Counted from the first letter of the stretch, positions 21,633-54,397 are shown. The stretch is DNA of 64,000 bases from Pseudochelatococcus sp. (GCF_050946405.1 NZ_JBMNUS010000013.1:71443-135442), one strand, 5' to 3'. The notes: a model not told the origin generated them from the sequence alone. Translations and numbers: made by a program.

Positions 21633-21663
21633 GCAAAAATTGCATGATAACGACAAAAATTGC
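21633..21663. promoter_or_regulatory. Direct repeat (G/A)CAAAAATTGC x2, 20-bp register, 50-80 bp upstream of megasynthetase start; AT-rich promoter region
   Basis: gcaaaaattgc at 21633-21643 and acaaaaattgc at 21653-21663 read in sequence; also TTTCACG x2 at ~21557/21568. Confidence 0.4.
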
Positions 21664-21711
21664 GTCGCGGGGAGAGGCGGGCGCTTGCGTCGTCATCTCC
21701 CATATCGTTAC

Positions 21712-23470
21712 ATGTCGGCGACAATCAGGCAGACTTTCCCCTCCCGATCGGATCAGCCGTTCATGTGCTCGTTCAAAGCGCCGTCGACGCTCAATGACGC
21801 CCTTGTCTCAAATGCGGGCGTGTCGGAGATCGGAGTTGCGGGCATTGGCGATCCGCCGCGCGGCGTGACCTTTTTCGGGGCCGACCGCCAGCTCACGCAT
21901 GTTTCCTACGCGCAGTTGCTCGACCGCTCCCGCCGCTGGCTGTGGCATCTGACGCAGGGCGGCGTCCGCCCCGGCGACGAGGTGCTGATCGTCACCGACG
22001 ACCTGCCGCTGTTCACGACGGTTTTCTGGGCCTGCGTGCTCGGCGGCATCGTCGCCGTGCCGGTCTCGACACCCACGAACGACGAGGGGGCGCTCAAGAT
22101 CGCGCGTATCCGGGGCGTTCTGCGGCGTCCGTGGATCGTCTCGGACGCGCGGGTGCATGCTCGCCTCGCCGCCGTCGCGGACGGGATCGCGCCGGAACGC
22201 ACGGCGTGCGCCGGCGAGCGCTCGATCGCGGTTCCCGGCGTCGTGCTCGATTGTCCGGCGGCGCCGGTGGCATCCGTGGCGGCGTCGGATGTGGCCTTCA
22301 TCCAGTTTTCCTCCGGCTCGACGGGCGCGCCGAAGGGCGTGATCGTCACCCACGCCAACCTGATCGCCAATTGCACGGCCATTCTCAAGGGCATCCTTGC
22401 GAACGCGCCCGGTGAAAACGGAGAAGCCGCGCGCCTGTTGAGCTGGATGCCGCTGACGCATGACTTCGGCCTCATCTGGTTCCACATCCTGCCGACCGTC
22501 TTCGGGCTGGATCACGGCCTCGTCCCGACGAAGCTCTTCGTGCGCAACCCGCTGGTGTGGATGCAGGCGGCCTCCGACATGAAGGCGAGCGTGCTCGGCG
22601 GGCCGAATTTCTCTTACCGGCATTTCCTCAAGCATTTCGATGCCGGCAAGCCGCGCGACTGGGATCTGTCGCCGGTCCGCGTCATCGCCAACGGCGCGGA
22701 GCCCATCTCCTGCGAACTGGCGGAGGAGTTCACCGCGGCGCTCGCGCCTTGCGGACTCGATCGCGGGGCGATGACCGCCGCCTACGGGCTGGCGGAAGGC
22801 ACGCTGGTGGTGAGCATGGCGCAGCCCGGCGCGGGGCTCGGCCGGATTTCCGTCGACCGCAACCGCGTCAATCCCGGCGAGCGCGTCGCGCCGCTGGATG
22901 AAGGCGATGACGCCGCGGTGAGTTTCGCGGATGTCGGGACGCCGCTGGATTGCGTGTCGCTGCGCGTTGTCGACGAGGCGGGGCTGCCCTGCGCCGACGA
23001 TGTGGTCGGCCGCTTGCAGATAACCGGCGCGAGCGTGACCGCCGGTTACTACAACGACGACGAGGCGACGCGCGCCGCCTTCACGGCGGACGGCTGGCTG
23101 GATACGGGCGATCTGGGCTTCATGCGCGCCGGGCGTCTCGTCGTCACGGGCCGCCGCAAGGACGTGATCATCGTCAACGGGGTGAACTACTATCCGCAGG
23201 ACATCGAGCGCGTGGCCGGCGAGGCGGAAGGGCTCGACCTCAACATGGTGGTCGCCGGCGCGATCCCGCGCGGGGTTCTCGGCGAGGATCGGGAAGGCGT
23301 CGTGCTGTTCGTGCTGTTCCGGCGCGAGGTGGAGCGGTTCCTCCCGCTCGCCCGCGAGGTGCGCGACCGCGTGCTGCGCGAGATCGGCATTCCCGTCGAT
23401 CGCGTCATTCCGGTGGCCCGCATCGCCAAGACGACGAGCGGCAAGGTGCAGCGCTTTCAGATGGTGGGGC
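21712..23470 (+). other. domain: fatty acyl-AMP ligase (FAAL/AL) starter
   Basis: AMP-binding core FSSGSTGAPKG, no upstream C domain, followed by ACP - MycA-like loading. Confidence 0.75.
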
Positions 23471-26400: not shown

Positions 26401-29400
26401 GAAGCGCCGACCTATCCCTTCATCGGCAAGACGCGCGTGCTGCCGACGGCCGGTGCGGATTCCCGCGCCGGCGAAGCGCAGGCGGCCGGCCGGGCGGAAG
26501 CGCTGCCCGTGCCCGCGGCGACAGCCCCGGTGGCGGGGCGCGAGGCGGTTGCGCACGTCATCCGCAGCGTCCTGCGCGGCGTCGCCGGGCTCCAGCCGGA
26601 GGAGGTGGCGGGCGATGCGACATGGTTCAGCCTCGGCCTCGATTCGCTGCTGATCGTCCAGCTCCAGCAGGCGCTGGCGCGCGAATACGCCATCGACCTG
26701 CCGCTCGCCGCCGTCATGGAGAACGGCGATACGCTCGACCGGCTCGTGACCCTCGTGGTGGAGCGCCTGCCCCGCGTGGCGCAAGCGCCGGTGGAAGCGC
26801 CCGTTATGGAGACGCCCGCTGCGGCGGCGGCTGGCGGCGAAGGCGTCGAGGGGCTTCTCGCCCGGCAGATCGACGCCATGAGCGCGCTGTTCAGCCAGCA
26901 ACTCGCGTTGCTTCAGGGCGGAGTCCGGCCGGCGGTTTCGACGCCCGCCGCTATCCCGGACGTCGCAGTCGCCGGGCCGGCCCCGGCCGCGCCGAAACGC
27001 GAGATCAAGGGCCTGTTCAAGGCGCTGCCGGCGCGCAGGGAGCAGGCGAATCCGGCGCAGGAGGCGCATGTGCGCCGCCTTGCCGCCGCCTTCAACGCCC
27101 GCACGCGCTCCTCGAAGGAGCATACGGCTGCCTATCGTGGCGTCTACGCCAACCCGCGCGCCGTGATCGGCTTCCGCCCCGAGTGGAAGGAGCTGAACTA
27201 CCCCCTGCATGTGGAGCGGGCGGAAGGGCCGTATGTGTGGGATATCGACGGCCATCGTTATGTCGACATCACCATGGGTTTCGGCGTGACGCTGTTTGGC
27301 CACAACCCGCCCTTCGTGCGCGAGGCGCTGGCGGCGGAGCTTGCCGCCGGCTTTCCCGTCGGCCCGCAGAGCGCGCGGGCCGGGCGGGTCGCCGCCATGA
27401 TCAGCGCCATGACCGGCGTGGAGCGGGTGGCGCTGTTCACCACCGGCAGCGAGGCCGTCATGGTCGCGCTGCGGCTGGCGCGCGCGAAAACCGGCCGGCG
27501 CAAGATCGTGACCTTCGTCAATTCCTATCACGGCACGTTCGACGGCGTGCTGGCGGTGGGCTGGACCGAGGGCGCGCGCGTGACGACCATGCCCGTGAGC
27601 GAAGGTACGCCGCAAGGCATGGTCGATGACGTGATCGTGCTGCGCTACGGCGATCCGGCCGCGCTCGACGTCATCCGCCAGCACCTCGCCGAACTGGCGG
27701 CCGTGGTGGTGGAGCCGGTGCAGAGCCGCGACCCGGCGGTGCAGCCGCGCGCCTTCCTGCACGAGTTGCGGGCGCTGACGGCGCAGGCGGGCGTCGCGCT
27801 CGTTTTCGACGAGACGATCACCGGCTTTCGCGTGCATCCCGGCGGGGCGCAACGCCATTTCGGCATCGAGGCCGATATCGTCACCTACGGCAAGGTCGTC
27901 GGCGGCGGCATGCCGATCGGCGTCGTCTCGGGAAGGCGGCATTATCTCGACGGCGTCGACGGCGGCGACTGGCAGTATGGCGACGATTCCGTTCCTTCCG
28001 CCCGCACCGCCTTCGTGGCCGGCACCTTCAACAACCATCCCCTGACGGCGGCGGCGGCGGAGGCGGTGCTGAAGCACCTCGCCGCCGAGGGGCCGCAGTT
28101 GCAGGAGCGGCTGAACGCCCGCACCGCCGCGATGTGCGCCGAGCTAGACGCCCTGTTCGCGGCCGAGGACGTGCCCGTCCGCATGGCGCATTTCAGCTCG
28201 CTGTTCCGTTTCGAGTTCGCCGGCGACACCGAGATCCTCAACTATCACCTGCTCAACAACGGCGTTTTCGTCTGGGAGGGGCGCAACTGCTTCCTCTCCA
28301 CCGCCCACAGCGACGACGACATCCGCTTCATCGTCGAGGCGGTGCGCAAGGGCATCGCGGAGATGCGGGCCGGCGGATGGCTGCCGCCGTCGCCGGGCCG
28401 CGCCGCGCCCGAGGCGCGCCAAGAGCATGGTGCGCGCGAGGAGGCAGGACCGGCGCCGCTCGGCCGGGGGCAGGGCGAGATGCTGGCGCTGCTCGAAGCG
28501 CGGCCGGAGGCGACGCTCGCCTATAACGAGATGGTGGCCTTCGCGCTCGACGGCCCGCTCGACCGGGAGGCGCTGCGCCGCGCCTTCGCCGGGCTCGTGC
28601 GGCGCCACGAGGCGCTGCGTTGCGCGGGCATCGACGAGACCGGCTGGCGCGCGGCGGCTCTTCCGCCCGCCGACCTGCCGGCGGAAGAGCCGGCCGAAGA
28701 AGGAGCGGTGATGGCGCGCCTGGCGCGCGAACTCGAAACGCCGTTCGATCTGCAACGCGGGCCGCTCATGCGCGCGCTGCTGCTGCGCCTTGCGCCGCAG
28801 CGGCATGTGGTGGCTTTCACCGTGCATCACATCGTCGCCGACGGCTGGTCGCTCGGCCTGATGGCGGGCGAACTCGCGGCGCTTTACGCCGCCGAACGGG
28901 CCGGCGTGGCGGCGGCGCTGCCGCCGGCCGAATCGTTCCGCGCCTTCGTCGCCTGGACGCAGGGCTTGGACGGCGGCGCGTCTCCGATGGCGGAAGACAG
29001 CGCGCCCGTCGTCCTGCCGGCCGCCGATTTCCCGCATCGCGCGTCCTTCCGCGGCGGGCGCGTCCACCGCCGCCTGTCGGCGGGCGGGCGGGAAGGCGAA
29101 GGCGTGTTCGATGCCGCGAGGCGTTTCGCGCGCGCGCATGACACAAGCCCGTTCACGGTGCTGCTCGCGGCCTATGCGCTGCTGCTCGGCCGCCTGTCGG
29201 ACCAGCGCCGGCTGACCATCGGCATTCCCGTCGCCGGCCATACGGAGGCCGGCTTGCCGGTGATGGTGGGGCAGGCGTCGGCGGTGCTGCCGCTGACGCT
29301 GGAACTCGATCCGCAAGCGGATTTCGCAGCCCTCGTTGCCCATGTGAAGGCGGCGCTGGCCGATGCCCGGCACGGCGTCGGCGGGCTCTTCACCGCGCAG

Positions 29401-32400
29401 GGCGGGCGGGGCACCGATGTCAACGTGCTGTTCAACCTCGACCGCGGTTTCCGGCTCGATTTCGAGGGATTGGGGCTGACGTGGATATCGCCTCCGGTCA
29501 GCCGGCCGAAAAAGGACCTGTTCCTCAACGTGCTGGAGCTGAACGGCGAAGCGCTGCTCGATCTCGATCATGACGGTGCGCTGGGCGATTCCGCCACGGC
29601 GGAGCGCTGGCTCGATTCCTTCCTGTCGCTGCTCGCCGAGGGGCTGCGCGCGCCCGCGACGCCGATCGCGCGCCTGCCGCTCTCCGCCGCTGACCGGGCG
29701 GCACAGGCGGATGATGTGCGCACGCGCGACGGCTTCGGCGCGCCGGCCGCCATCGGCACGGTCGCGCCGGTGGAGGCGCGCGACGATGCGGGGCTTTGGG
29801 CCGACACGGGGCGGCTCGGCCGGCTGCGGGCGGATGGCGGCGTCGAGGTGCTGGGCGAGGCGCGGCGTTTCCTGCGCACGCGCGGCGGCTGGCTCGATCT
29901 CGACCTTCCGGCGCGGGTGCTGCGGGAACACCCGGCGCTGGCCGATGCCGCCGTGATCGCGGAATCCGGCGGGCTGACCGCCTTCGTGACGCCGCGCGCG
30001 GGCGGGCAGGTCGACGGGCAGGCGCTCGCCGCCTATGCGGCGCTGCGGCTGCCGCCCGAGGCGCGGCCGGCCGCCTTCGTCGTGACGGATATCGCGCGCG
30101 ATGCCGGGGGGCGCGCCCTCCTGCGCGCCGATCACGGCGAGCGTCTCGCCACGCGCGCCCTCACGCCCGCCCGCACCGATGCGGAGAAGGCGGTCGCGGC
30201 GATCTGGGCCGAGGTTCTCGGGCTGGAGGAAGTCGGCGTCCTCGACAGCTTCTTCGACCTCGGCGGTCACAGCCTCAAGGCGCTCGCCATCCTCGCGCGC
30301 GTCGAGGCGCGGCTCGGGCGCACCGTGCGGCTGCGCGCCTTCTTCGAGGAGCCGACCGTGGCGGGGCTCGCGTCACGTCTGGGCGCGGGCGAGGCGCATG
30401 CCGTCATTCCGACCGCGGCACCGGCGGCGCATTATCCGGCGTCGAACGCGCAGGCGCGGCTGTGGATGCTCGACCGGATCGATCCCGGCCTTGCCGCCTA
30501 CAACATCGGCTTTTCGCTGCGCAGCGCCGCGCCTCTCGACGAAACCGCGCTGCGGATCGCGCTGGCGGGCCTCGCCGGGCGGCACGAGAGCCTGCGCACG
30601 GCGCTCATCGACCATGACGGCCTGCCGCGCCAGACGATCCTGCCCGCGTTGCAGCCCGAGCTGCGCATCGAGGATGCGGTGGGCGCGGACGCGGCGGCGC
30701 TCGTCGCGCGGGAGCGGGCCATCGCCGCCGAGCCCTTCGCGCTGGAGCGCGCGCCGCTCTGGCGGGCGGTGCTGCTGCGCGGGGGGCAAGGGGATATCGA
30801 GCCGGCGGGCGACCGTCTGGTGTTCGTGCTGCATCATGCCATTGCCGATGTGTGGTCGGTCGGCGTTTTCGTGCGGGATTTTCTGGCGTTGTACGCAGAG
30901 GCCGGCGGCGCACGGCTGCCGGCGCTGGCGCTGCAATACCGGGATTATGCGGTCTGGCAGGTGGGGCGGCCGGAGCCGCATCTTGACTGGTGGGTCGCGG
31001 CGCTGGCGGATGCGCCCCGGCTGGAGCTGCGGCCCGACCGGCCGCGCCCGCCGCTCAAGACCTTCAACGGCGATCATGTCGTTCTCGATGTGCCGGGGCC
31101 GGTCGCGGCGGCCCTCAAGGCGCTTGCCGCCGTCAACGGCGCGAGCGCGTTCACGGCGGTGGTCGCGGCGCTCTGCAACCTGCTGTGGGAAGAGACGGAG
31201 GCGCGCGACATCGTCATCGGCACGGTGACGGCGGGGCGCGACCATCCGGCGCTCGCGGACCAGATCGGTTTCTTCGTCAACACGCTGGCGCTGCGCGCGC
31301 GGGTGGCGCCGGAGGCGGGCTTCCTGCCGCTGCTCGCGGGCGTGCGCGATGCGCTGCTGGCGGCGGCCGAACATGGCGATACGCCGCTCGACCGGGTGGT
31401 CGAGGCGTTGAACCGCCCGCGCGATCCGGCGCGCAATCCGCTGTTCGAGGTCGTCGTGGTCATGGACGACCGCGAGGAGATCGACCGGCTGCTCGCCGGC
31501 ACCGGCTTCGCGCTCGCGGAAATCGACACGGCGACGGCGCAGTTCGACCTCACGCTTTATGTCACCGACGGCGCGGACGGCATCCGCATCAAGGCGACCT
31601 ACAATACCGACCTGTTCGACCGCGCCCGCATCGAGGGACTGATGGCGCGGCTGGCGGGGCTGATGGCGGGGGCGGCCGCCGATCCGGCGCGCGCGCTCGC
31701 CGCGCGGGCGCAGGGGGGCAGGGCGGCGCATGGTTCCGCGCCTGGCCAACGGCAAGGCTACGCGCCGTCGCGCCATCAGGAGCGGCTGTGGTTCGTGGAT
31801 CACTTCGAGCGCGGCGTGCTCTATCCGTCCGGGCCGACCTATTACAACATGCCGTTCGTGGTGCGCGTCGACGGCGCGGTCGATGCCGCGCGGCTCGCGG
31901 CTGCCGCTGCGGCGCTTGCGGCGCGGCATGAGGCGCTGCGCGCGGCGCTCGTCACGCAGGGCGACCGTCCGGCCGTCGAGGTCGCGGCGGCTGCGGCGCT
32001 GCCGGTTGCGGAGATTGCGGCGCCGGCGGGGGCGGGGCTTGCCGCAGTCGAGGAGGCGAGCCGCGCGGCCTTCGACCTCGATACGCCGCCGCTCGCCCGT
32101 CTGACGCTCTGCCGCGAGGCGGGGAGCGGCGCCTGCTGGCTCGCCCTGACGGTTCATCACGCCATGGGCGACCGGGCGGCGCTGCGCACGCTGGCGGAGG
32201 AACTCGCCCGCCTTTATGCCGACCCGGCCGCCGCCCTGCCGGAAATCCGCCCCTTCGGCGCGGCCCATGCGCTGCCGGAGCGGGCGGTGGAGGCCGGCCA
32301 TGAGGCGGATGCCGCCTATTGGCGCGAGGCGCTGGCGGGCGTTTCCGCGCTCGTGCTGCCGACGGACCGGCCCCGCCCCGCGATCCACACCTTCACGGCG

Positions 32401-35400
32401 GGCCGCGTCGCGGGGCGGCTCGACGCGGCGCTGCGCGGGCGGATCGACGCGCTGGCGGCGGCGCTCGGCGTGAGCCGGGCGGATGTGCTGCGCGCCGGTT
32501 ATCAGGCGTTGCTGCATCGTCTTTCCGGCCAGCGGGATGTCGTCATCGGCGAGACCGTGCAGCCGCCGCAACCGGCGCGGACGGTCGGGCCGCTCGCCAA
32601 TCTCCTGCCCTTGCGGCTCGACGTGGAGGCCGGCGAGGGCTTTGCCGCGCTGGTGCGGCGCGCGGCGGCGCGGCGGCAGGCGGATGCGGCGCATGGCGCG
32701 ATCCCCTTCGATCTGCTGGTGCTGGCGGTGAAGCCGCGCAACGACATGAGCCGCACGGCGCTGTTCGATGTGCTGTTCCACCATGAGAATGCGACCGCCG
32801 CCCTGCCGGCCGGGTGGGCGGCGGTCGACACCGGGCTCGGCTGGGGCAAGTACGATTTCGTGCTGTCCGTGGTGCCGGATGGCGACGGGCTGGCGGTGAG
32901 CCTCGTCTACAACCGCGACCTTTTCGACGCCGCCAGCGCGCAGGCCGTCCACGCGCGCTACGGGCAACTGCTGGCGGCGGCGCTGGCGCAGCCGGAGCGG
33001 CCGCTGTCTGCGCTCGACATCATGCTGCCGGGAGAGCGCGCGGCGCTGCTGGCCGAAGCCGGCGAGGTGGCCGATTACCCGCGCGGCCTCACGCTCACGG
33101 CGCGTTTCGAGGAGATGGCGGCGCGCCACGGGGCGCGCATCGCCGTCACCGACACCGACGGGGAACTGACCTATGCGGCGCTCGACGCGCGCGCCAACCG
33201 GCTGGCGCATCGCCTGCGCGCGCTCGGCGCGGGACCGGAGGCGCTGGTCGGGCTGTTCGTGGGGCGCACCTGGCGCATTCCCGCTGGCATTCTCGGCATT
33301 CTCAAGGCGGGCGCGGGCTATGTGCCGATCGATCCCGCCTATCCCGACGAGCGCATCCGCTTCATGGTGGCGGATTCGGGCATGCGGCTCATCGTCACCG
33401 ACGCTGAAAACGCGGCGGCGGCGCACCGCCTCGGCATTGCTACGGTGGTGATCGATGATCTGGCGGAGGACCTGCCCGTCGCGGCGACACCCGAAAATGC
33501 CGCGCCCGAAAATGCTGCGCCCGAGAACGTCGCTTACGTCATCTACACGTCCGGTTCCACCGGCATGCCCAAGGGCTGCGTCATCGAGCACCGCAACGTC
33601 ATCCAGCTCTTCTTCCACGAGGGGCGGCCGTTCGCCTTCGGGCCGGATGACGTGTGGAGCCTGTTCCACTCCGCCTGTTTCGACTTCTCGACGTGGGAGA
33701 TCTACGGCGCGCTGCTCTTCGGCGGCCGGCTCGTCGTCGTGCCGCAGGCGCTGACGCGTGAGCCCGCCGCCTTTCTGGAACTCGTCGCCCGCGAGGGGGT
33801 GACGGTGCTGAGCCAGACGCCGACCGCCTTTTACGGGCTGATCGAGGCGGCCCGGCAGCGCCCCGGCCTGCATCTTGCGCTGCGCGAGATCGTCTTCGGC
33901 GGGGAAGCGCTGGCGCCGGCCCGGCTTGCCCCGTGGCGGGCGCTCCACCCGGCCGCGCGCCTCGTCAACATGTACGGCATCACCGAAACGACGGTGCATG
34001 TGACGTTCAGGGAGATCGGCGACGCCGAGATCGCGGAGGGCCGCAGCGTCATCGGCCGGCCGCTGCCGTCCTGCGGCGTGTTGCTCGTCGGCCCCGATCT
34101 CGCGCCCTGCCCGCGGGGCGTGGCCGGCGAGATCGTGGTCGCGGGCCACGGCGTCGCCCGCCGCTACCTGAACCGGCCGGAACTCACGGCGGAGCGCTTC
34201 ATCGCGCACCCGGACCTGCCCGGCGGGCGCGTCTACCGCTCCGGCGATCTCGGCCGGATCGGGCTTGACGGCGAGCTGGTCTATCTCGGCCGCATGGACG
34301 ATCAGGTCAAGATACGCGGCTTTCGCATCGAGCCTGGCGAGATCGAGCGCCGGCTGGTCGCGCATCCCGCGATCCGCGATGCGGCCGTTCTCGCCGAGGG
34401 CGGCGAGGGCGGCGAGGGCGCGGCGGGCGAGAGCCTCTGCGCCTGTGTCGTCACCGATGCGCCGCCCGGCCGCGAGGAGCTGTTTCACTATCTGGCGGAC
34501 AAGCTGCCCGACTACATGATTCCGTCGCGCTTCCTGCGCGTGGCGCGCATCCCGCTCACGGCCAACGGCAAGGCGGACCGCCGGCGGCTCGCGGCGGAGG
34601 GCGGCGAGGCGATCGGCGCGGGGGGCGGCGCGGAGGAAGGCCGGGCGCCGCGAACGCCACTGCAAAAGGCGGTGGCGCGCATCTGGTGCGAGGTGCTGGG
34701 CGTGCCGCAGGTGGGGCTCGACGACAATTTCTTCGCGCTCGGCGGCCATAGCCTCAAGGCCAATCAGGTCGTGGTGCGCATCCGCCAGCGCCTCGGCGGC
34801 AGTCTCGACCTGCGCGATTTCTTCAGCGCGCAGACGCTCGCCGTGCTGGTCGAGCTGATCGAGCGGCGCGGGCTCGGCGCGGCGGGCACTATTGCCCCGG
34901 CGCCGTCCGCGCCCGACTATCCGCTCTCCTTCGCGCAGCGCCGGCTGTGGCTGGTGCAGAACATGAACCCCGATAGGGTGGCCTACAACATGGCCGGCGC
35001 CTTCGTCGTGGAGGGGGCCGTCGACCGGGAGCGGCTGGCGGCGGCGTTCCGGGCGCTGGCGGTGCGCCACGAGATCCTGCGCACGCGCTTCGTCTCGCGC
35101 CACGGCGAGCCCCGGCAGGTGGTGGATGCCGGCATCGACGGGCATATGGCGGTGTTCGAGGCCGGCCATGACGCGGGAAGCGGCGGGATGGCGGCCGTGG
35201 AGCGGCTGCTCGCGGCGGAGCTTCGCCATGTCTTCGATCTCGCGCGCGGGCCGCTGGCGCGGGTGCATCTGGCGGAGCTGCCCGTCAAAGGGCACGGCGG
35301 CTGCGCCATCATCATCAACCTGCATCATATCGTCTCCGACGGCTGGTCGGTGACGGTCATGCTGCGCGAGCTGGAGGCGCTCTACCGCGCGGCGCTGGCT

Positions 35401-36354
35401 GCGCCGCAGGCGACGCCGGCGGAGATCGCGGCGCGGGCCGGGCTGCCGGCGCTGCCGGTCCAGTACCGGGACTATGCCTTGTGGCAGCACGGCGAGGCGG
35501 CGGGCGAAGGGTTGCGGGCGGCCCGCTCCTACTGGCTCGCCCGCTTCGAGGACGAGGCGCCGGCGCTGGAACTGCCGGCCGACCGGCCGCGTCCGCATAC
35601 GCCCGGCGGGGCCGGCGCCATCGTGCATGCCGTGCTCGACGAGGAACTGACGCAGGCGCTGAGGGACCTCGCGCGCCGCCACGACATGAGCCTGTTCGGC
35701 GTGCTCGCCGCGCTCGTGCGGGTGCAGCTCGCGCTCCTGTCGGGGCAGGACGACATCACCATCGGCACGCCGGTCGCCGGCCGCAACCTGCTGGAGCTGG
35801 AGGGGCAGATCGGCTTCTACCTCAACCTGCTGGCGCTGCGCGGCCGCATCGGGCCGCAGGATGCCTTCGGCGATGTCCTGAAGGCGGAGCGCACCCTGGT
35901 GCTCGACGCCTTCGCCCATGAAGCCTGTCCGTTCGACCTCCTGGTCGGGGAGCTGGGCGTCACGCCGGAGCGCGGCCGCCATCCGCTTTTCGACGTGCTG
36001 ATCATTCTCCAGAACAACGAGCCCGTGCGCCTCGACCTTGCCGGGAGCCGGGGCGCGCCGCTGCGCGATACCAGCATCAGCGCCAAATACGATCTCAACT
36101 ATATGTTCGAGGACCGGCCGGCGCTCGAACTGCTGCTGGAATACGCGGCGGATCTTTTCGATGCGGACACGGCCCGCCGCATCGCCGGGGATTTCGTCGC
36201 CCTCGCGCGGGCGGTCGCCGCCGATCCCTCCATCGGCGTCGACAGCCTGCGGGATCGCATGCAGCGGGCCGTGCCGCCGCCGGATGCGCCAGCGGCGGAT
36301 GTGCTGGCGCATGACGCGGCGCATGGTGCGGCTTTTGCCGATGACGGGTGGTGA
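21712..36354 (+). CDS. Hybrid PKS/NRPS megasynthetase: FAAL-ACP-KS-AT-ACP-AMT-C-(A remnant)-PCP-C-C-A-PCP-C (about 4880 aa)
   Basis: Uninterrupted 14.7 kb ORF; motifs read directly: FSSGSTGAPKG (acyl-AMP ligase), GFTSL and LGLDSL carrier serines, DTACSS/HGTGT (KS), GHSAGE + HAFH (malonyl AT), GSA-aminotransferase-like PLP domain (YGKVVGGG), four condensation domains with HHxxxD(G) motifs, complete A domain (YTSGSTGMPKG...NGKADRR), FFxLGGHSL PCPs. ATG 21712 (MSATIRQ...) preferred over ORF-track start 21640. Confidence 0.9.
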   Translation: MSATIRQTFPSRSDQPFMCSFKAPSTLNDALVSNAGVSEIGVAGIGDPPRGVTFFGADRQLTHVSYAQLLDRSRRWLWHLTQGGVRPGDEVLIVTDDLPLFTTVFWACVLGGIVAVPVSTPTNDEGALKIARIRGVLRRPWIVSDARVHARLAAVADGIAPERTACAGERSIAVPGVVLDCPAAPVASVAASDVAFIQFSSGSTGAPKGVIVTHANLIANCTAILKGILANAPGENGEAARLLSWMPLTHDFGLIWFHILPTVFGLDHGLVPTKLFVRNPLVWMQAASDMKASVLGGPNFSYRHFLKHFDAGKPRDWDLSPVRVIANGAEPISCELAEEFTAALAPCGLDRGAMTAAYGLAEGTLVVSMAQPGAGLGRISVDRNRVNPGERVAPLDEGDDAAVSFADVGTPLDCVSLRVVDEAGLPCADDVVGRLQITGASVTAGYYNDDEATRAAFTADGWLDTGDLGFMRAGRLVVTGRRKDVIIVNGVNYYPQDIERVAGEAEGLDLNMVVAGAIPRGVLGEDREGVVLFVLFRREVERFLPLAREVRDRVLREIGIPVDRVIPVARIAKTTSGKVQRFQMVGQFVAGAFDEALRALDAADAAEGAALRRAWERGDEAALVAELAAWGARIVPGGALDPGRPLMESGFTSLRLVELMRRIGRALSLDLPVTLAFEQPTLAALAGALVRLRSADAAPAEAPRAAPAAERARIGITGLACRLPGGVESPAGFWRLLEGGVDATAPVAPGRWPAYDASLTVTDRGGYLADIETFPARFFNLTQVEADAVDPQQRLLLMTAWEALEHAGIDPLSLKGSRTGVFVGISPGDYVQAQARAGRLDAIGPHAFLGSATSVAAGRIAYVLGLEGPALAVDTACSSALAALHLAVRALRAGECDRALVAGVNLILGPEMHVGLSRMNALSPAGRCRAFDAAADGYARGEGCVTLVLERLDAGDAPRPLALVRGTGLNHDGASNGLTAPNGAAQRAVIAAALADAGLAPADVDYVEAHGTGTPLGDPIEAMALAEAYGAGRDGELRVGSVKTNIGHLEAAAGLAGLAKAVLALRHGSLPASLHFETPNPLIPWPQLPLRVVDRAEPWPAVAGRVRRAGVSAFGMSGTNAHVIIEEAPPAPVPAHDDARATVLPVSARTPEECAALAERYAAALERADSGRMHDLARTAACGRAAMAHRLAVTGRDPAELAAKLRAKAAAGAGRPDAGAPVVFLLPGQGAHAPEAVRALHARERVFRETLDAADAALEGFLDRRLTDLLLSPEGAPLLGRTAYNQPATVAVSLAVAAMLRAFGVRPDAVIGHSAGEIAAAALAGMLDLPTAVRFAAARGAAMQALDGGAMIAVRAPAQTINDVIAQTLARVEGVGVAAWNAPARVTLSGPREAVARAAAVLREAGARVAELRVAELDVSHAFHSPMMDGALAPIRELAAGLTVSAATGRMISTLTGGPVDAGALRDPAYWARQAREPVAFAAAVSAVGGDAPDRVDPVLIDLGARPVLAPLAAEVLPQARCLAVCDARRPDERLIETLGELFEAGRPVAWPAVFAERPGRLAEAPTYPFIGKTRVLPTAGADSRAGEAQAAGRAEALPVPAATAPVAGREAVAHVIRSVLRGVAGLQPEEVAGDATWFSLGLDSLLIVQLQQALAREYAIDLPLAAVMENGDTLDRLVTLVVERLPRVAQAPVEAPVMETPAAAAAGGEGVEGLLARQIDAMSALFSQQLALLQGGVRPAVSTPAAIPDVAVAGPAPAAPKREIKGLFKALPARREQANPAQEAHVRRLAAAFNARTRSSKEHTAAYRGVYANPRAVIGFRPEWKELNYPLHVERAEGPYVWDIDGHRYVDITMGFGVTLFGHNPPFVREALAAELAAGFPVGPQSARAGRVAAMISAMTGVERVALFTTGSEAVMVALRLARAKTGRRKIVTFVNSYHGTFDGVLAVGWTEGARVTTMPVSEGTPQGMVDDVIVLRYGDPAALDVIRQHLAELAAVVVEPVQSRDPAVQPRAFLHELRALTAQAGVALVFDETITGFRVHPGGAQRHFGIEADIVTYGKVVGGGMPIGVVSGRRHYLDGVDGGDWQYGDDSVPSARTAFVAGTFNNHPLTAAAAEAVLKHLAAEGPQLQERLNARTAAMCAELDALFAAEDVPVRMAHFSSLFRFEFAGDTEILNYHLLNNGVFVWEGRNCFLSTAHSDDDIRFIVEAVRKGIAEMRAGGWLPPSPGRAAPEARQEHGAREEAGPAPLGRGQGEMLALLEARPEATLAYNEMVAFALDGPLDREALRRAFAGLVRRHEALRCAGIDETGWRAAALPPADLPAEEPAEEGAVMARLARELETPFDLQRGPLMRALLLRLAPQRHVVAFTVHHIVADGWSLGLMAGELAALYAAERAGVAAALPPAESFRAFVAWTQGLDGGASPMAEDSAPVVLPAADFPHRASFRGGRVHRRLSAGGREGEGVFDAARRFARAHDTSPFTVLLAAYALLLGRLSDQRRLTIGIPVAGHTEAGLPVMVGQASAVLPLTLELDPQADFAALVAHVKAALADARHGVGGLFTAQGGRGTDVNVLFNLDRGFRLDFEGLGLTWISPPVSRPKKDLFLNVLELNGEALLDLDHDGALGDSATAERWLDSFLSLLAEGLRAPATPIARLPLSAADRAAQADDVRTRDGFGAPAAIGTVAPVEARDDAGLWADTGRLGRLRADGGVEVLGEARRFLRTRGGWLDLDLPARVLREHPALADAAVIAESGGLTAFVTPRAGGQVDGQALAAYAALRLPPEARPAAFVVTDIARDAGGRALLRADHGERLATRALTPARTDAEKAVAAIWAEVLGLEEVGVLDSFFDLGGHSLKALAILARVEARLGRTVRLRAFFEEPTVAGLASRLGAGEAHAVIPTAAPAAHYPASNAQARLWMLDRIDPGLAAYNIGFSLRSAAPLDETALRIALAGLAGRHESLRTALIDHDGLPRQTILPALQPELRIEDAVGADAAALVARERAIAAEPFALERAPLWRAVLLRGGQGDIEPAGDRLVFVLHHAIADVWSVGVFVRDFLALYAEAGGARLPALALQYRDYAVWQVGRPEPHLDWWVAALADAPRLELRPDRPRPPLKTFNGDHVVLDVPGPVAAALKALAAVNGASAFTAVVAALCNLLWEETEARDIVIGTVTAGRDHPALADQIGFFVNTLALRARVAPEAGFLPLLAGVRDALLAAAEHGDTPLDRVVEALNRPRDPARNPLFEVVVVMDDREEIDRLLAGTGFALAEIDTATAQFDLTLYVTDGADGIRIKATYNTDLFDRARIEGLMARLAGLMAGAAADPARALAARAQGGRAAHGSAPGQRQGYAPSRHQERLWFVDHFERGVLYPSGPTYYNMPFVVRVDGAVDAARLAAAAAALAARHEALRAALVTQGDRPAVEVAAAAALPVAEIAAPAGAGLAAVEEASRAAFDLDTPPLARLTLCREAGSGACWLALTVHHAMGDRAALRTLAEELARLYADPAAALPEIRPFGAAHALPERAVEAGHEADAAYWREALAGVSALVLPTDRPRPAIHTFTAGRVAGRLDAALRGRIDALAAALGVSRADVLRAGYQALLHRLSGQRDVVIGETVQPPQPARTVGPLANLLPLRLDVEAGEGFAALVRRAAARRQADAAHGAIPFDLLVLAVKPRNDMSRTALFDVLFHHENATAALPAGWAAVDTGLGWGKYDFVLSVVPDGDGLAVSLVYNRDLFDAASAQAVHARYGQLLAAALAQPERPLSALDIMLPGERAALLAEAGEVADYPRGLTLTARFEEMAARHGARIAVTDTDGELTYAALDARANRLAHRLRALGAGPEALVGLFVGRTWRIPAGILGILKAGAGYVPIDPAYPDERIRFMVADSGMRLIVTDAENAAAAHRLGIATVVIDDLAEDLPVAATPENAAPENAAPENVAYVIYTSGSTGMPKGCVIEHRNVIQLFFHEGRPFAFGPDDVWSLFHSACFDFSTWEIYGALLFGGRLVVVPQALTREPAAFLELVAREGVTVLSQTPTAFYGLIEAARQRPGLHLALREIVFGGEALAPARLAPWRALHPAARLVNMYGITETTVHVTFREIGDAEIAEGRSVIGRPLPSCGVLLVGPDLAPCPRGVAGEIVVAGHGVARRYLNRPELTAERFIAHPDLPGGRVYRSGDLGRIGLDGELVYLGRMDDQVKIRGFRIEPGEIERRLVAHPAIRDAAVLAEGGEGGEGAAGESLCACVVTDAPPGREELFHYLADKLPDYMIPSRFLRVARIPLTANGKADRRRLAAEGGEAIGAGGGAEEGRAPRTPLQKAVARIWCEVLGVPQVGLDDNFFALGGHSLKANQVVVRIRQRLGGSLDLRDFFSAQTLAVLVELIERRGLGAAGTIAPAPSAPDYPLSFAQRRLWLVQNMNPDRVAYNMAGAFVVEGAVDRERLAAAFRALAVRHEILRTRFVSRHGEPRQVVDAGIDGHMAVFEAGHDAGSGGMAAVERLLAAELRHVFDLARGPLARVHLAELPVKGHGGCAIIINLHHIVSDGWSVTVMLRELEALYRAALAAPQATPAEIAARAGLPALPVQYRDYALWQHGEAAGEGLRAARSYWLARFEDEAPALELPADRPRPHTPGGAGAIVHAVLDEELTQALRDLARRHDMSLFGVLAALVRVQLALLSGQDDITIGTPVAGRNLLELEGQIGFYLNLLALRGRIGPQDAFGDVLKAERTLVLDAFAHEACPFDLLVGELGVTPERGRHPLFDVLIILQNNEPVRLDLAGSRGAPLRDTSISAKYDLNYMFEDRPALELLLEYAADLFDADTARRIAGDFVALARAVAADPSIGVDSLRDRMQRAVPPPDAPAADVLAHDAAHGAAFADDGW
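23840..26380 (+). other. domains: ketosynthase (Cys at ~24340) + malonyl-specific acyltransferase (GHSAGE ~25650, HAFH ~25975); no KR/DH/ER
   Basis: DTACSSAL, EAHGTGTPLGDPIE, NIGHLEAAAG; GHSAGEIAAAALAG; VSHAFHSPMM. Confidence 0.85.
27000..28370 (+). other. domain: PLP-dependent aminotransferase (AMT; glutamate-1-semialdehyde aminomutase-like) embedded in PKS
   Basis: HemL-like motifs ...GFGVTLFGHNPPF..., DETITGFR, YGKVVGGGMP; positioned after ACP2 exactly as in mycosubtilin MycA. Confidence 0.8.
28460..30390 (+). other. module 1: C - degenerate A (only ~170 aa A8-A10-like C-terminal subdomain, 29641..30150) - PCP
   Basis: C domain HHIVADGWS ~28825; after C-A linker (LSAADRAAQ) the sequence jumps to an Asub-like stretch (TGRLGRLRADGGVEVLGEA...LPARVLREHPALADAAVI) with no A1-A7 core; PCP FFDLGGHSLKAL ~30255. 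Confidence 0.7.
30420..33010 (+). other. tandem condensation didomain C2 (HHAIADVWS ~30830) - C3 (HHAMGDR ~32155)
   Basis: Two full-length (~430 aa each) C-domain-like regions back to back, each starting with SxAQxRLW-type C1 motif and containing His-motif; no carrier or A domain between. Confidence 0.7.
33090..36351 (+). other. module 2 A-PCP (YTSGSTGMPKG ~33545; FDFSTWE pocket) and terminal C4 (HHIVSDGWS ~35325) that must pair in trans with next NRPS
   Basis: Complete A1-A10 motif set; PCP FFALGGHSLKANQ ~34730; ORF ends in C domain. Confidence 0.8.
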
Positions 36355-36357
36355 GCC

Positions 36358-38247
36358 ATGTGCGGCATCGTGGGATTTCTCGACCGGGATGGCGCGCCGC
36401 GCCCGCACGATCTGCTGCGCCGCATGGCGGAGGCCGTGCGCCACCGGGGGCCGGATGACGAGGGCTTCTTCACCGGCGACGATATCGGTCTCGGGTTCCG
36501 CCGTCTGTCGATCGTCGATCTGGAAGGCGGGCGGCAGCCGATGTTCGCCGGCGACGGGCGTGTGGCGGCCATCTGCAACGGCGAGATCTACAACCACGCC
36601 GAGCTGCGGGCCGATCTCACGGCGCGCGGCCACCGCTTCCGCACGCGCTGCGACACGGAGGTGATTCCGGCGCTGTTCCTCGAATACGGGCTCGACTTTC
36701 CGCGCCGCATCAATGGCCAGTTCGCCTTTGCCGTCTACGATCGGGAGACGCGCCGGCTGGTGCTGGGGCGCGACCATGTGGGCATCGCGCCGCTGTTTCA
36801 TGCCGAGGTCGGCGGGCTGCTGTTGTTCGGCTCGGAAATCCGGGCGCTGCTGTGCCATCCGGGCCTTGCCCGCGATGTCGACCTGACGGCGCTCGACCAG
36901 ATCCTGACCTTTCCGGGGCTGGTGAGCCCGCGCACGATCCTGGCGAACGTGCGCGCGCTGCCGCCGGGGCATCTGCTGGTGGCCGATCCCGGCCGGCCGC
37001 CGCGCCTCGATCGCTTCTGGGATCTCGATTTTCCGCGCCATGATGAGTTTCCGCGCCATGACGAGATCGGCCCGCCCGGCCGGGCGGACGATTACGTCGA
37101 CGAGCTGGACGCCGCGTTGCGGCAGGCGGTGCGCTACCGGTTGCAGGCCGATGTGCCGGTCGCCGGCTATCTGAGCGGCGGCCTCGACAGTTCGCTCGTC
37201 GCCGCCATCGTCGCCGATCTGGAGCCGGGGGCCACGCGGCATACGTTCTCCATCACCTTTCCCGACAGGGCGATCGACGAGCGCGAGCCGCAGCGCCTCG
37301 TCGCGGCGAGGCTCGGCACCGCCCATCACGAGCGGGAGATCGATCCCGCGCGACTCGCCGCCGGGCTCGACCGCATCGTGGGCTGTGCCGAAGCGCCGCT
37401 GCGCGAATCCTATAACGTATGCTCGCTGCATCTGTCGGGCATGGTGCGCGAGGCCGGGCTCAAGGTGGTGCTCACCGGCGAGGGCGCGGACGAGCTTTTC
37501 GGCGGCTATGTGGGCTACAGGCTCGATGCGGAGCGCGCGCCTGACGCGGACGACCCTTACGATCTCGACGCGCTGATCGAGGGCGAGTGGCGCGAGCGCC
37601 TGTGGGGAGACAGCCGTTTCTTCTACGAGAAGGATTATGGCGCGAGCCGCGACATCCGCCGCGAACTCTACGCGCCGGCGCTGGCCGAGCGCTTCGAGGC
37701 GTTCGACTGCCTCGCCCATCCGCTTGTCGACCGCGCGCAGATCGAGGGCCGGCATCCGTTTCATATCCGCTCGTATCTCGATTTCAAGCTGCGCCTGGCC
37801 GATCATCTGCTGGCGGATCACGGCGACAGGGTGAGCTTCGCCAATTCCGTCGAGGCGCGCTATCCGTTTCTGGACATCGGCGTCATCGACGTGGCGCGCC
37901 GCATCCCGCCCGCCCTCATGGTGCATCAGGGCGAGGAAAAGCATATCCTCAAGCGTCTCGCCCGGCGCTACCTGCCGGCGCAGATCGTGGAGCGCAAGAA
38001 GTTCAGCTTCGTCGCCCAGAGCAGCGCCACGCTGCTGCGCGAGGGCGTGCCGCGCGTGCGCGAGGTGCTCGACGAGGCACGCGTCGCGGCGGACGGCTAC
38101 TTCAGCCCGGAGGCGGTCGCGCATCTCAAGCAGCGGCACGCCGCGCCGGGCGCGGAACTCAACCAGACCTTCGAAGACGACTTCCTGATGGTCGCACTGA
38201 CCTTCGGGATCCTGCGCGAACAATTCGATCTGCCGAAACTCTCATGA
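36358..38247 (+). CDS. asparagine synthetase (glutamine-hydrolysing) family amidotransferase, AsnB-like
   Basis: N-terminal MCGIVGF (Cys2 Ntn glutaminase), PP-loop SGGLDSS in C-terminal synthetase domain; starts 3 nt after megasynthetase stop, stop overlaps next NRPS start (ATGA). Confidence 0.85.
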   Translation: MCGIVGFLDRDGAPRPHDLLRRMAEAVRHRGPDDEGFFTGDDIGLGFRRLSIVDLEGGRQPMFAGDGRVAAICNGEIYNHAELRADLTARGHRFRTRCDTEVIPALFLEYGLDFPRRINGQFAFAVYDRETRRLVLGRDHVGIAPLFHAEVGGLLLFGSEIRALLCHPGLARDVDLTALDQILTFPGLVSPRTILANVRALPPGHLLVADPGRPPRLDRFWDLDFPRHDEFPRHDEIGPPGRADDYVDELDAALRQAVRYRLQADVPVAGYLSGGLDSSLVAAIVADLEPGATRHTFSITFPDRAIDEREPQRLVAARLGTAHHEREIDPARLAAGLDRIVGCAEAPLRESYNVCSLHLSGMVREAGLKVVLTGEGADELFGGYVGYRLDAERAPDADDPYDLDALIEGEWRERLWGDSRFFYEKDYGASRDIRRELYAPALAERFEAFDCLAHPLVDRAQIEGRHPFHIRSYLDFKLRLADHLLADHGDRVSFANSVEARYPFLDIGVIDVARRIPPALMVHQGEEKHILKRLARRYLPAQIVERKKFSFVAQSSATLLREGVPRVREVLDEARVAADGYFSPEAVAHLKQRHAAPGAELNQTFEDDFLMVALTFGILREQFDLPKLS

Positions 38248-41200
38248 CAGGACAAGGCCCCGTGCACTCCACCATGCAGCCTCCCGTGCAGCGTCCCATG
38301 CAGCGTAGCTCCTACGTCGACCGGTTCGAGGAGAATGCACGGGCGCGCCCCGCCGCCGCCGCGCTGGCGACGGCGGCGGGTGAAGTGTCCTACGGCGCGC
38401 TCGACGCGCGGGCGCAGCGCCTCGCCCGGCGGCTCGCGCGGCTGGGGGCGGGGAAGGGCGTCATCGTCGGCCTGTTTCTGGACGCCGACGAAACCTATGT
38501 CGCGGCGCTGCTCGGCGCCGGCAAGACGGGCGGCGCCTTCCTGCCGCTGCCGCCGGACCTGCCGCCGCTGCGCGTCGCCGCCTGCCTCGCCAAAGCGGAA
38601 TGCGGGATCGTCGTGACGCTGGGCCGCCACCGCGCCGCGCTGGATGCGGCGCTGGCTGAAGCCGGCCGATCGGTCGCGGTCATCGAGGCGGATGCGCCGG
38701 ACGATGCCGGCGACGCCGCGCCGGTGGCGCGCGCCATCGGCCCTCACGATCCCTGCTACGTCATGTTCACGTCGGGCTCCACCGGCGCGCCGAAGGCCAT
38801 TCTGGGGCCGCATCGCAGCCTCTCCCACTTCCTGCGCTGGGAGGTCGGCGAGTTCGGGCTGGATGAGACGGTGCGCGGCTCGTGGCTCGCGCCCGTCACC
38901 TTCGATGTCAGCCTGCGCGACATCCTCGTGCCGCTCATGGCCGGGGGCACGCTCTGCATTCCCGATGCCGAGACGCGGATGGTGCCGCGCAAGCTGGTCG
39001 ACTGGCTGGCGCGCGAAAAGGTGACGCTGGTGCATTGCGTGCCGACGGTGCTGCGCCTGATCACGCGCGAGCTGGCCGACCGCGGCGGCGATGCCGGCCT
39101 TGCGGTGCGTCATCTGCTGGTGGCGGGCGAGCCGCTGCTCGGCGCGGATGTCGCGGCCTGGCGGGCGGCGGCAGGCGGGCGCGCCGAGGTCGTGAACCTC
39201 TATGGCCCGTCGGAAACCACGCTGGCGAAGGTGTTCCACCGCATCGGCGAATTGCCCGCCGATCCGCGGCGGGTGCTGCCCATCGGCCGGCCGCTGCCCG
39301 ACACATCGGTGCTCGTTCTTTCCAACGGCCGGCTTTGCGGCCCGCAGCAGATCGGCGAGATCCACATCCGCACCGCCTATCCCTCGCTCGGCTACCTGAA
39401 CGACGCGGCGCTGACGGCGGCGAGCTTCATCCGCAATCCGCTCGGCAACGACGATGCCGACATCGTCTACAAGACCGGCGATCTGGGGCGCTACCTGCCG
39501 GACGGCACCGTCGAATGCCTCGGCCGGCAGGACAATCAGGTCAAGGTCAATGGCGTGCGCATCGAGCTTGCCGAGATCGAGGTCGCGCTGCGCGCCGTCG
39601 CGGGCATCGCCAAAGCGGCGGCGGCGGTGCATGCGGGCGGCGGGGCCGATCCCGTGCTCGTGGGTTATTATGTGCCGGATGCCGGCGCGGCGCCGTCGGC
39701 GGAGGCGATCAAGGCGCAGCTCGGGCGCATCCTGCCGGCGGCCATGCTGCCGCACGTGCTGGTGCGTCTCGACGACCTGCCGCGCACCATCAGCGGCAAG
39801 CTCAATCGCAAGGCGTTGCCGCGCCCGGAGGAGCTGTTCTACGCCGAGCATGCCTATGTGGCGCCGCAGGGCGAGACGGAAGACAAGCTCGCGGCCATCT
39901 GGCGCGAGATCTTCGGCCTGACGCGCGTCGGCGTCGAGACCGCCTTTCACGATTTCGGCGGCGACAGCCTGCGGGCGATCCGCGCCGTGCAGAAGATCTT
40001 CCAGACATTCTCCGTCGAGATCAGCCTGAAGGATTTTCTCGCCGCCGCGACGATCCGGGAACTGGCGCGCCTCGTCGCGGCCGCAGTCCCCGCGCCGGTG
40101 AGCGCCATTGCGCGCGCGGCCGATGCGGCAAGCTATCCCGCCACCCCGGCCCAGAACCGGCTGTGGCGTCTCGACCGGCTCGGCATCGCCCCCACCGCCT
40201 ACAATCTGACGGAAGCGTGCGAGCTGCTGGGGCCGGTGAACGAGGCGGCGCTGGAGCGCGCCTTTCGCGACCTGATCGGCCGCCACGAATCGCTGCGCAC
40301 CACATTCGAGGAGGATGCGGACGGCAACGCGCGCCAGATCGTGCACCATGACACGCCCTGGCGGCTCGAACGCGTCGACCTGCGCCGCCATGCGGAGCCG
40401 GACCGCGCCGCCGCGCTGCTGGCGCGGGACAATGCCGGGCATCGCTTCGACCTGCATCGCGGCCCGCTGCTGCGCGTCGTGCTCGCCCGCCTGCCGGATG
40501 CGGAGGGCGCGGCGCGGCATGTGCTGCTGTTCAACATTCATCACATCGTCGCCGACGTGTGGTCGCTCGGCGTGCTGGTGCGCGAGGTGGCGGCGCTCTA
40601 TGCGGCGGCACTCGCCGGCCGCGACGCCGGCCTTGCGCCGCCGGCGCTGCAATTGCGGGATGTGGCCGTGTGGCAGGCCGGGCGGGCGGCCGCCGGCGCG
40701 CTGGACGGCGACCGCGCCTATTGGCTGGAGCGCTTCTCCGCGCTGCCCGCGCCGCTCGACCTGCCGGCCGACCGGCCGCGCCCGCCGGTGCAGACCTTCA
40801 ACGGCACCACGCGGCGCTTCCGCCTGCCGGCGGACCTGACCGGGCAGCTCGACGGCCTCGCGCGCCGGCACGGCACGACGCGCTTCGCCGTGGTCACGGC
40901 GCTGACGAAGGCGCTGCTGCACCGTTATACCGGACAGACGGATATCGTCGTCGGCAGCCCCGTCGCCGGCCGCACGGATGCGGCGCTGGCGGACCAGATC
41001 GGCTATTACGTCAACACGCTCGCGCTGCGCGACACTGCGGAGGCGGGAGCGCGCTTCGCCGACCTGCTCGCGCGCGTGGCGGCGACGGTGCGCGAGGGGC
41101 TCGCGCATCAGGATTACCCGTTCGACGCGCTGGTGCAGGAACTGCCGCTCGAACGCGACATGAGCCGCTCGCCGCTGTTCGACGTCATGGTCGTCGACCA

Positions 41201-47364: not shown

Positions 47365-47410
47365 ACAGGCGGTTGCGTTTTGACGAGAGGCATGCAGGGG
47401 AATGACGATC

Positions 47411-54318: not shown

Positions 54319-54397
54319 TCCGGCCGGGCACATGTCCGCGGCGGGCCGGCAGCGGGCAGGACGTCACCAGCAACTTCCAAACCGTAATGGCGAAACC

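Follow-up and report, generated by a model that had tools for sequence, protein, structure and literature searches.

Nonribosomal peptide synthetase (NRPS) modules in which two condensation (C) domains stand before a single threonine-activating adenylation (A) domain and its carrier domain (T, or peptidyl carrier protein, PCP) have been noticed in two papers without a functional assignment. In the megapolipeptin pathway of Paraburkholderia megapolitana, MgpB has the domain order KS-AT-T-TA-C-A-T and MgpC starts with C-C-A(Thr)-T; the second C domain of MgpC is the sole one with an HHxxxDR motif, and megapolipeptin contains L-Thr followed by L-allo-Thr (PMC11411415). In the keanumycin pathway, module 5 "is adjacent to two downstream LCL domains", the P. 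mandelii group has no A domain in module 5, and residue 6 of keanumycin D was identified as L-allo-Thr by Marfey analysis (PMC10599466). A tandem also occurs in module 3 of the icosalide synthetase IcoA, which consists of a C domain, an embedded chain-initiating C domain and then A-T (PMC6553374). The tandem that we investigated comprises the domains C2 and C3 of a hybrid polyketide synthase (PKS)/NRPS gene in a 64,000-nucleotide stretch of DNA from Pseudochelatococcus sp. (the window; positions are counted from its first letter), and it is a new member of the C-C-A(Thr)-T architecture. C3 and its relatives in other modules of this kind form a family of condensation domains, here called C'. 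Very likely, C2 is the domain that condenses, and C3 is an accessory domain specific for threonine.

By Pfam, the gene encodes, in order, FAAL-ACP-KS-AT-ACP-class III aminotransferase-C1-(dead A remnant)-PCP-C2-C3-A-PCP-C4. C2 (30418..31758, + strand) and C3 (31759..33009, + strand; N-terminal sequence SRHQERLWFVDHFE) lie back to back, and both give near-complete matches to PF00668 (C2: E = 1.5e-78, 264.9 bits, profile positions 3-441 of 456; C3: E = 6.3e-58, 197 bits, positions 8-442 of 456). The original prediction, which had been made from the sequence of the window, described two full condensation domains with no carrier between them, and both points hold. The linker between the two Pfam envelopes measures 69 nt or 23 residues (31699..31767, + strand, from the envelope ends), and a Pfam scan of the junction (31600-31900) for carrier domains recovered C-domain edges only and no PP-binding match, which excludes an overlooked PCP or docking stub. 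The closest PCPs lie on either side of the tandem, their GGHSL motifs being at nt 30262 and 34741. C3 is followed, after a gap of about 32 aa, by an A domain with the Thr-type code DFWSVGMVH (33106..34572, + strand; PF00501 and PF13193, code by alignment) and by the PCP of the Thr module (34669..34914, + strand; PF00550, E = 2.2e-18), which is the carrier that C2 and C3 must both serve. The two quoted active-site motifs were also located, HHAIADVWS at residue 3065 of the open reading frame (ORF; nt 30832-30858) in C2 and HHAMGDR at residue 3506 (nt 32155-32175) in C3. HHxxxD is intact in each (HHAIAD and HHAMGD), and the position of the motif Gly is taken by Val in C2 and by Arg in C3. The tandem domains have the CAT-like two-lobed fold, and the predicted model of C3 is complete and confident.

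The two domains differ in their affinities. The best PDB matches of C2 are Txo2, Txo1, the fuscachelin PCP-C didomain and TycC (180-206 bits), whereas C3 scores 125 bits against those chains and is thus the more divergent of the two. C2 scores 396 with a hidden Markov model (HMM) of canonical LCL domains and 204 with an HMM of the C' family built without the window and its orthologs, and its DV variant is kept in the orthologs; these matches mark C2 as an ordinary elongation domain of the LCL type. C3, too, finds its closest counterparts in sequence and in fold among elongation C domains, and, unlike C2, it weakly matches the rhizomide starter C domain. C3 lacks the motifs of epimerization (E) domains, and C domains match it better in sequence and in fold. 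Neither C3 nor C2 matches the dehydrating domain of AmbE (7r9x) at E <= 1e-5, whereas AmbE does match C1 and the DCL domain of the cluster. Several simpler accounts of the pair were considered and rejected. The identity between C2 and C3 is about 30%, no higher than between any other pair of C domains in the protein, which rules out a recent duplication. An E-DCL pair misread as C-C does not fit, since C2 and C3 match C domains and the true E and DCL domains of the cluster behave otherwise. A Cy domain or a glycopeptide X domain is likewise rejected, as both tandem domains have HHxxxD, neither has DxxxxD or HRxxxDD, and no P450 was found in the window.

The C' family was delimited by re-scoring the C-domain relatives of C3 locally in 270 fetched proteins, because matches in the representative library had been ranked by summed multi-domain scores. 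In these proteins the closest relatives of C3 share an N-terminal block, S-[FY]-HQERLWFIDxFE...Y...P.YHN, and an active site of the HHxxADR type. Many are the second C domain of a C-C'-A-T module in otherwise unrelated NRPSs (P0243, P0205, P0249, P0164, P0232, P0151, P0138, which has two, and P0171), and others are found at a protein N-terminus. A profile built from 14 such domains (A1) retrieved 80 metagenomic loci, and a search of the protein database with the family profile returned 10 proteins. When every C domain in the 80 loci was given a class score, the C' HMM score minus the canonical LCL HMM score, the distribution was bimodal: 78 domains scored at least +57, and none of the others exceeded -20; C' is therefore a discrete family. 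With the leave-out HMM, C3 scores 350 for C' and 270 for canonical (about +81), and C1, C2, C4 and the C domain of the second NRPS lie at -88 to -214, in the canonical class. By this sequence-based score C3 is a member of C'.

The signature of the family consists of HQERLWF..FE....Y...P.Y.N, HHxxxD followed by a residue other than Gly (mostly R/K), DMSRTALFD, and G.GKYD; in C3 the corresponding stretches are SRHQERLWFVDHFERGVLYPSGPTYYN, HHAMGDR, NDMSRTALFDVLF and GWGKYD. HH is present in 92 and the Asp in all of 93 C' members. Arg follows the Asp in 59 members, Lys in 14, Pro in 10 and Gly in no more than 3, so that the missing Gly, to which the original prediction had drawn attention in C3, turns out to be a trait of the family; P0258, among the 270 proteins, has a DG motif. 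About 35 further positions are invariant or nearly so, and many of these depart from the canonical consensus, namely H6, F16, E17, Y22, P26, Y28, P278, M330, T333, D337, G361 and G363. The module type recurs across Proteobacteria, Bacteroidota and many metagenomes. In the searchable literature, nothing that we found describes C' as a family or connects it with Thr or allo-Thr, and a full-text search for "HHxxxDR" returned, among bacterial systems, the megapolipeptin paper only. A different tandem is seen in P0008 (1099 aa), which reads A_C-PCP-C, a linker of about 50 aa, and C; both C domains are LCL-like, and the second has MQHVVSDAWS, with QH for HH. C-C tandems thus come in more than one type.

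The context of the C' domains is highly uniform. In the metagenomic loci, C' stands directly after another C domain in 75 of 78 cases (median gap 55 nt), and an A domain comes immediately next in 77 of 78. Within the 75 tandems the two domains share a reading frame in 57, and the first C domain is on the preceding protein in 18. All 70 scorable A domains after C' have a DFW-type Thr code (DFWNIGMVH 50, DFWNVGMVH 9, DFWSVGMVH, as in the window, 3, other DFW-type codes 8), whereas only 11 of the 79 remaining A domains of these loci have a Thr code; in long database NRPSs a Thr code follows C' in 12 of 14 cases. The window's code, DFWSVGMVH, is DFWNVGMVH in the ortholog. Their canonical code and their slight separation from the rest of the Thr A domains make it probable that the A domains behind C' load L-Thr. 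We rejected the idea that they form a separate substrate class, since the difference in mean identity (49% within the group, 47% between it and other Thr A domains) is slight and not decisive.

The type of the first C domain in a tandem agrees with the configuration of the upstream donor, which a working condensation domain has to match. It is DCL in all seven tandems that an E domain precedes, and LCL in all but two of the remaining tandems. This indicates that the first C domain is the condensing one. It has HH and D in 64 of 64 cases, and the next residue is G, A, F or V (V in C2). The upstream order is T-C-C' for 51 of the 78 C' domains and E-DCL-C' for 7, and seven C' modules have an E domain of their own downstream. 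Loading of an upstream A-less carrier, as in the window, was rejected as a general function of C', since most C' modules follow a normal A-T module.

Two product families connect the C' module with allo-threonine. The first is that of the mycin lipopeptides. P0232/P0271, from several Pseudomonas species, has the order C-C'-A(Thr)-T-C-A(Thr)-T-C-A-T-C-T, and is preceded by a 5370-residue NRPS and followed by a glycosyltransferase, a two-module NRPS with a thioesterase (TE) and a flavin monooxygenase; this neighbourhood is the brabantamide surroundings described for mycin clusters (PMC10599466). Mycin synthetase B (keanumycin KeaB, thanamycin type) contains a C-C'-A(Thr)-T module as in the window. 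The C' domain of P0232 belongs to the family and has HHLLADRSA and SYHQERLWFVDTFE; its identity to C3 is only about 34%. As in the window, an A-less module lies just upstream in the P. mandelii group (PMC10599466); unlike the window protein, the mycin synthetase is an NRPS throughout and has a starter C domain, the upstream residue being 2,4-diaminobutyrate. The C' module is the first module of its protein, which, combined with the published module numbering, assigns it to position 6, the allo-Thr of keanumycin D. Dehydrobutyrine (Dhb), the neighbouring residue, corresponds to the next Thr module, which has no C'.

The second family is that of the megapolipeptins. The shared order with the window is KS-AT-T-aminotransferase-C-A-T followed by C-C-A(Thr)-T-C, and both pathways have a dubious A domain upstream of the tandem, the megapolipeptin product being a beta-amino fatty acyl peptide (PMC11411415). 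In contrast to mgp, the window retains no more than a dead remnant of that A domain; it also has a fused FAAL at the start, and it continues with A-PCP-C-A(MT)-PCP-E and then DCL-A-PCP-TE. A simpler reading of the megapolipeptin pathway than the published one would be that the upstream module provides L-Thr and that the C-C'-A-T module provides L-allo-Thr, which would fit the mycin case. The mycin and mgp clusters share no conserved partner gene.

If the A domains after C' load L-Thr, C' is the only candidate for a change at C-beta. We assign a probability of roughly 0.4 to the reading that C2 elongates and C3 tailors the carrier-bound threonine, most likely by inversion of C-beta. That the reaction is specifically the conversion of L-Thr to L-allo-Thr by C', as the correlation in two product families suggests, is a tentative proposal. 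The broader notion, that C' is a new catalytic condensation subtype which inverts the C-beta of Thr from the acceptor side of its own module, we regard as somewhat doubtful. Under this proposal, the A domain would load Thr onto the PCP at 34669-34914, and C3, positioned against the A domain in the manner of a normal C domain, would probably take the Thr-loaded PCP at its acceptor-side tunnel and convert the threonyl or peptidyl-threonyl thioester to the allo form. C2 would link the upstream acyl or peptidyl thioester, held on the A-less PCP, to the Thr residue, and C4 would hand the chain on. The catalytic His of HHxxxD and the C' Arg/Lys at the Gly position would take part, by a route of either elimination and re-addition of water or retro-aldol and aldol reactions. 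The fuscachelin C domain has HHxxxDE, and the residue that stands there in place of the motif Gly touches the acceptor substrate (PMC8097023); by analogy the Arg/Lys of C' would face the carrier-bound Thr. Loading of the A-less PCP probably occurs in trans, and the A domain of the Thr module may supply it with Thr, by analogy with the Thr-alloThr of megapolipeptin; in that case the product would begin with beta-amino-fatty-acyl-(Thr)-alloThr.

The original prediction had suggested that one copy may act as a non-condensing modifier. This fits the comparative data, with C3 as the copy in question; however, the dehydration or beta-lactam formation that it offered as examples finds no support, given the absence of an AmbE match and the assignment of the mycin C' module to allo-Thr at position 6 and not to Dhb. 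Several observations weigh against inversion by C3. The allo-Thr link is a correlation in two product families, and the megapolipeptin case enters it through our re-reading, since the authors themselves propose iterative use of the module and capping by the odd C domain (PMC11411415); moreover, the second C domain of MgpC is a putative member of C', by that paper's description. As a live alternative, the A domain may itself select free L-allo-Thr. The Arg of the motif is not invariant, the Methylobacterium ortholog having Pro, and P0137 (Chitinophaga silvisoli, from residue 3618 onward) has QS for HH while keeping ADR and the other motifs. Only two of the 78 C' domains (in L069 and L079, 4992-6293 in each) open a protein straight after a stand-alone A-T; each may be the sole condensing domain at its locus, so that C' may still be capable of condensation. 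In its fold, C3 is nearer to C domains than to E domains, and to our knowledge C-beta inversion is without precedent for the condensation fold.

The location of the protein boundary exactly between C and C' in 18 of the 75 tandems, together with several proteins that start with C', would be expected if C3 were a non-catalytic adaptor or interface, which couples the elongating C domain, at times located on another protein, to A(Thr)-PCP or recruits a trans-acting partner. A role of this sort has been proposed for the interface domains of siderophore synthetases. The loss of both His residues from one member points the same way, as does the N-terminal helix HQERLWFxDxFE, which is the most conserved family-specific block and a possible contact surface. 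However, a purely structural role would have no need for the near-invariant HH and Asp, it leaves the strict restriction to Thr unexplained, and there is no conserved partner gene; next to the module, the window has no gene for a TauD-type hydroxylase, a P450 or another tailoring enzyme. We therefore consider an adaptor function fairly unlikely. The intact HHxxxD would instead agree with C3 being a second active condensation domain of the starter type, which caps a second nucleophile, such as the beta-amino group of the fatty acid, or lets the Thr module act twice. The megapolipeptin authors group the equivalent domain with starter C domains and propose capping and iterative Thr addition (PMC11411415), and the embedded C domain in the C-C-A-T module of icosalide is a proven chain initiator (PMC6553374); the weak rhizomide match of C3, absent from C2, and the two C' domains after a stand-alone A-T, where C' is perhaps the only C domain, also favor this explanation. 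It is quite unlikely nonetheless, because the contexts of C' are mostly those of ordinary peptides with no free amine to cap (the T-C-C' and E-DCL-C' orders above), no donor carrier or acyl-activating gene accompanies the module, and the top sequence and fold matches of C3 are elongation domains. In addition, the mycin module yields exactly one backbone residue, whose hydroxyl is free (PMC10599466).

Dehydration would, as a side-chain reaction, suit the restriction to Thr, and the condensation fold offers precedents for elimination on Ser/Thr in the CmodAA domain of AmbE (PDB 7r9x) and in LgnD-C2. Yet known dehydrating C domains work on the donor side, downstream of the carrier, whereas C' lies upstream of the A domain; the mycin C' module corresponds to the allo-Thr of keanumycin D, and Dhb to the next Thr module; and C3 fails to match AmbE at the threshold given above. 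Dehydration of Thr to Dhb, or another modification of the elimination type, is thus very unlikely. Least probable is that C3 is a degenerating remnant, left when recombination placed a C-A-T unit after a C domain that was already there. The deletion of an A core just upstream is compatible with such an event, and C'-A(Thr)-T could move as a block, as the A domains after C' tend to be mutual nearest relatives. However, the family-wide motifs are invariant, the predicted model of C3 shows a complete fold, the tandem is kept in the Methylobacterium and Burkholderiales orthologs, and C3 is conserved between genera like the working domains and above the true relic in the same protein.

This relic belongs to the module directly upstream of the tandem, whose lack of an A domain, noted in the original prediction, we can confirm. 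About 130 aa separate C1 (28447..29796, + strand; motif HHIVADGWS; PF00668, E = 1.7e-47; nearest PDB chains C domains) from the PCP of the A-less module (30217..30417, + strand; PF00550, E = 8.5e-13; GGHSL Ser motif at nt 30262), and they match the C-terminal subdomain of AMP-binding enzymes only. This remnant (29797..30216, + strand) scores 24 bits with PF13193, below the family cut-off, with weak matches to the C-terminal ends of acyl-CoA ligases. Its catalytic Lys motif reads GGRALLRA, and the adenylation core is gone. The full layout, including the A remnant and the C2-C3 pair, is kept in Methylobacterium sp. EM32 (L001), in a Burkholderiales metagenome-assembled genome (MAG; P0001) and in an ENA contig (P0250). 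Between the window and Methylobacterium, C3 is 62.6% identical, compared with 65.5% for C1, 67.3% for C2, 67.7% for C4, 61.4% for FAAL and 62.0% for AT; the dead A remnant, at 55.0%, has the lowest identity of all segments. The possibility raised earlier that one copy is an inactive structural relic is therefore not upheld for C3, and the conservation of C3 and of the HH (92/93) and D (93/93) residues of C' indicates, at the sequence level, that they are under purifying selection. A module-level rearrangement in this assembly line, likewise suggested at the outset, is contradicted by the low identity of C2 and C3 and by the persistence of the layout in another genus and another order, and the recurrence of the C-C'-A(Thr) unit in unrelated assembly lines disfavors it as well. 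Three loci from marine metagenomes (L074-L076) have the order AMT-C-T-C-C'-A-T-C with no A remnant at all.

Other condensation-fold domains offer partial parallels. The icosalide tandem resembles that of the window in that two C domains precede one A-PCP and in that the second C domain of IcoA acts on the aminoacyl thioester of its own module; this second domain is of the starter type and N-acylates Ser with a 3-hydroxy fatty acid, after which the first C domain forms an ester (PMC6553374). By contrast, C' is linked with Thr and found in ordinary amide backbones, and its best matches are elongation C domains. The interface domains of siderophore synthetases, reportedly described by Reitz et al. 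in PNAS in 2019, are said to be condensation-fold domains placed before an A domain, in modules that modify the C-beta of the amino acid on the carrier, and to occur together with Fe/2OG beta-hydroxylases and A domains for Asp or His. By this description C3 is set apart from them, as the scanned genes contain no TauD-type domain and the A code is that for Thr. An interface domain with a beta-hydroxylase was accordingly rejected for the window, no hydroxylase being present in any scanned ORF. E and dual E/C domains have the condensation fold and HHxxxD and change the stereochemistry of a carrier-bound residue; they act at C-alpha of the upstream residue, on the donor side. C3 differs from E domains in lacking their motifs and in its better match to C domains, and from CmodAA domains in its position upstream of its own A-PCP.

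Genome-mining tools label both domains of such a tandem "condensation", leaving one seemingly redundant. Recognition of C' provides a rule for which of the two forms the peptide bond, flags a recurring module type in Proteobacteria, Bacteroidota and metagenomes, and offers a testable answer to the question of where the L-allo-Thr in nonribosomal peptides originates. If the inversion by C' were true, it would explain the L-allo-Thr in mycin lipopeptides, in megapolipeptins and in many uncharacterised peptides; the stereochemistry of the Thr side chain would become predictable from sequence, and the condensation fold would gain a new reaction. For the cluster in the window the model predicts an iturin-like beta-amino lipopeptide that would start with (Thr)-alloThr.

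The tandem lies in an uninterrupted + strand ORF of 14.7 kb (21640..36354, from the ORF call and its translation). The database protein P0121, from a Pseudochelatococcus sp. MAG and annotated "iturin family lipopeptide synthetase A", has domain sequences identical to those of the ORF and is 41 residues shorter; the likely start is therefore the ATG at 21763, giving a gene of about 14.6 kb (21763..36354, + strand; ORF, Pfam domains and P0121). C4, the last domain of the protein (34915..36351, + strand; PF00668, 281 bits), is of the LCL type and scores 427 with the canonical HMM against 213 with the C' HMM; its partner is the A-PCP that opens the next NRPS (NRPS 2). The module that follows Thr is thus split: C4 closes NRPS 1, A-PCP opens NRPS 2, and an asparagine-synthetase homolog is inserted between them (34915-38247 overall). 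This homolog (36358-38247; TIGR01536, 435 bits) has a stop codon that overlaps the ATG of NRPS 2 at 38244, and at the Methylobacterium locus an ORF of 635 aa is likewise found directly 3' of the NRPS. NRPS 2 (38244..45683, + strand; Pfam) has the order A-PCP-C-A(MT)-PCP-E, its last domain being E by PDB matches, and is followed by an ABC exporter of the cyclic-peptide type. NRPS 3 (54332..58387, + strand; start ATG 54332; Pfam) has the order DCL-A(Asp-like, DLTKLGHIG)-PCP-TE, and its first C domain is of the DCL type, with TycB1 and SrfA-C as best PDB matches.

The E domain that ends NRPS 2 (44280-45683) and its DCL partner at the start of NRPS 3 (54332-55790) are separated by five genes that do not encode NRPSs: the ABC exporter, an autotransporter, a 318-aa gene without a family match, a DUF697 gene and an SPFH/Band 7 gene. 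The autotransporter gene (47402-50836) encodes 1144 aa with a beta-lactamase/transpeptidase fold (PF00144) and a C-terminal autotransporter barrel (PF03797), and could be a surface-exposed peptidase or esterase that acts on the product, or could serve in self-protection. Two ORFs, at 50858-51814 (318 aa) and 58441-59295 (284 aa), have no Pfam or NCBIfam match, and no TauD-type hydroxylase, P450 or other tailoring gene was found among the window ORFs scanned. The genes of the upstream flank have housekeeping functions and encode an Lrp-type regulator, an alanine racemase, a D-amino-acid dehydrogenase, ChrB and an MFS transporter. The regulator (Lrp/AsnC), racemase and dehydrogenase form a dadAX-like unit just upstream of the cluster (16567-19602), which is probably a housekeeping unit outside the pathway. 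The G+C content is 71-75% in the NRPS region (22000-46000), 60-68% in the flanks and 60-63% in the last 4 kb of the window, a contrast which suggests that the cluster may be an acquired island.

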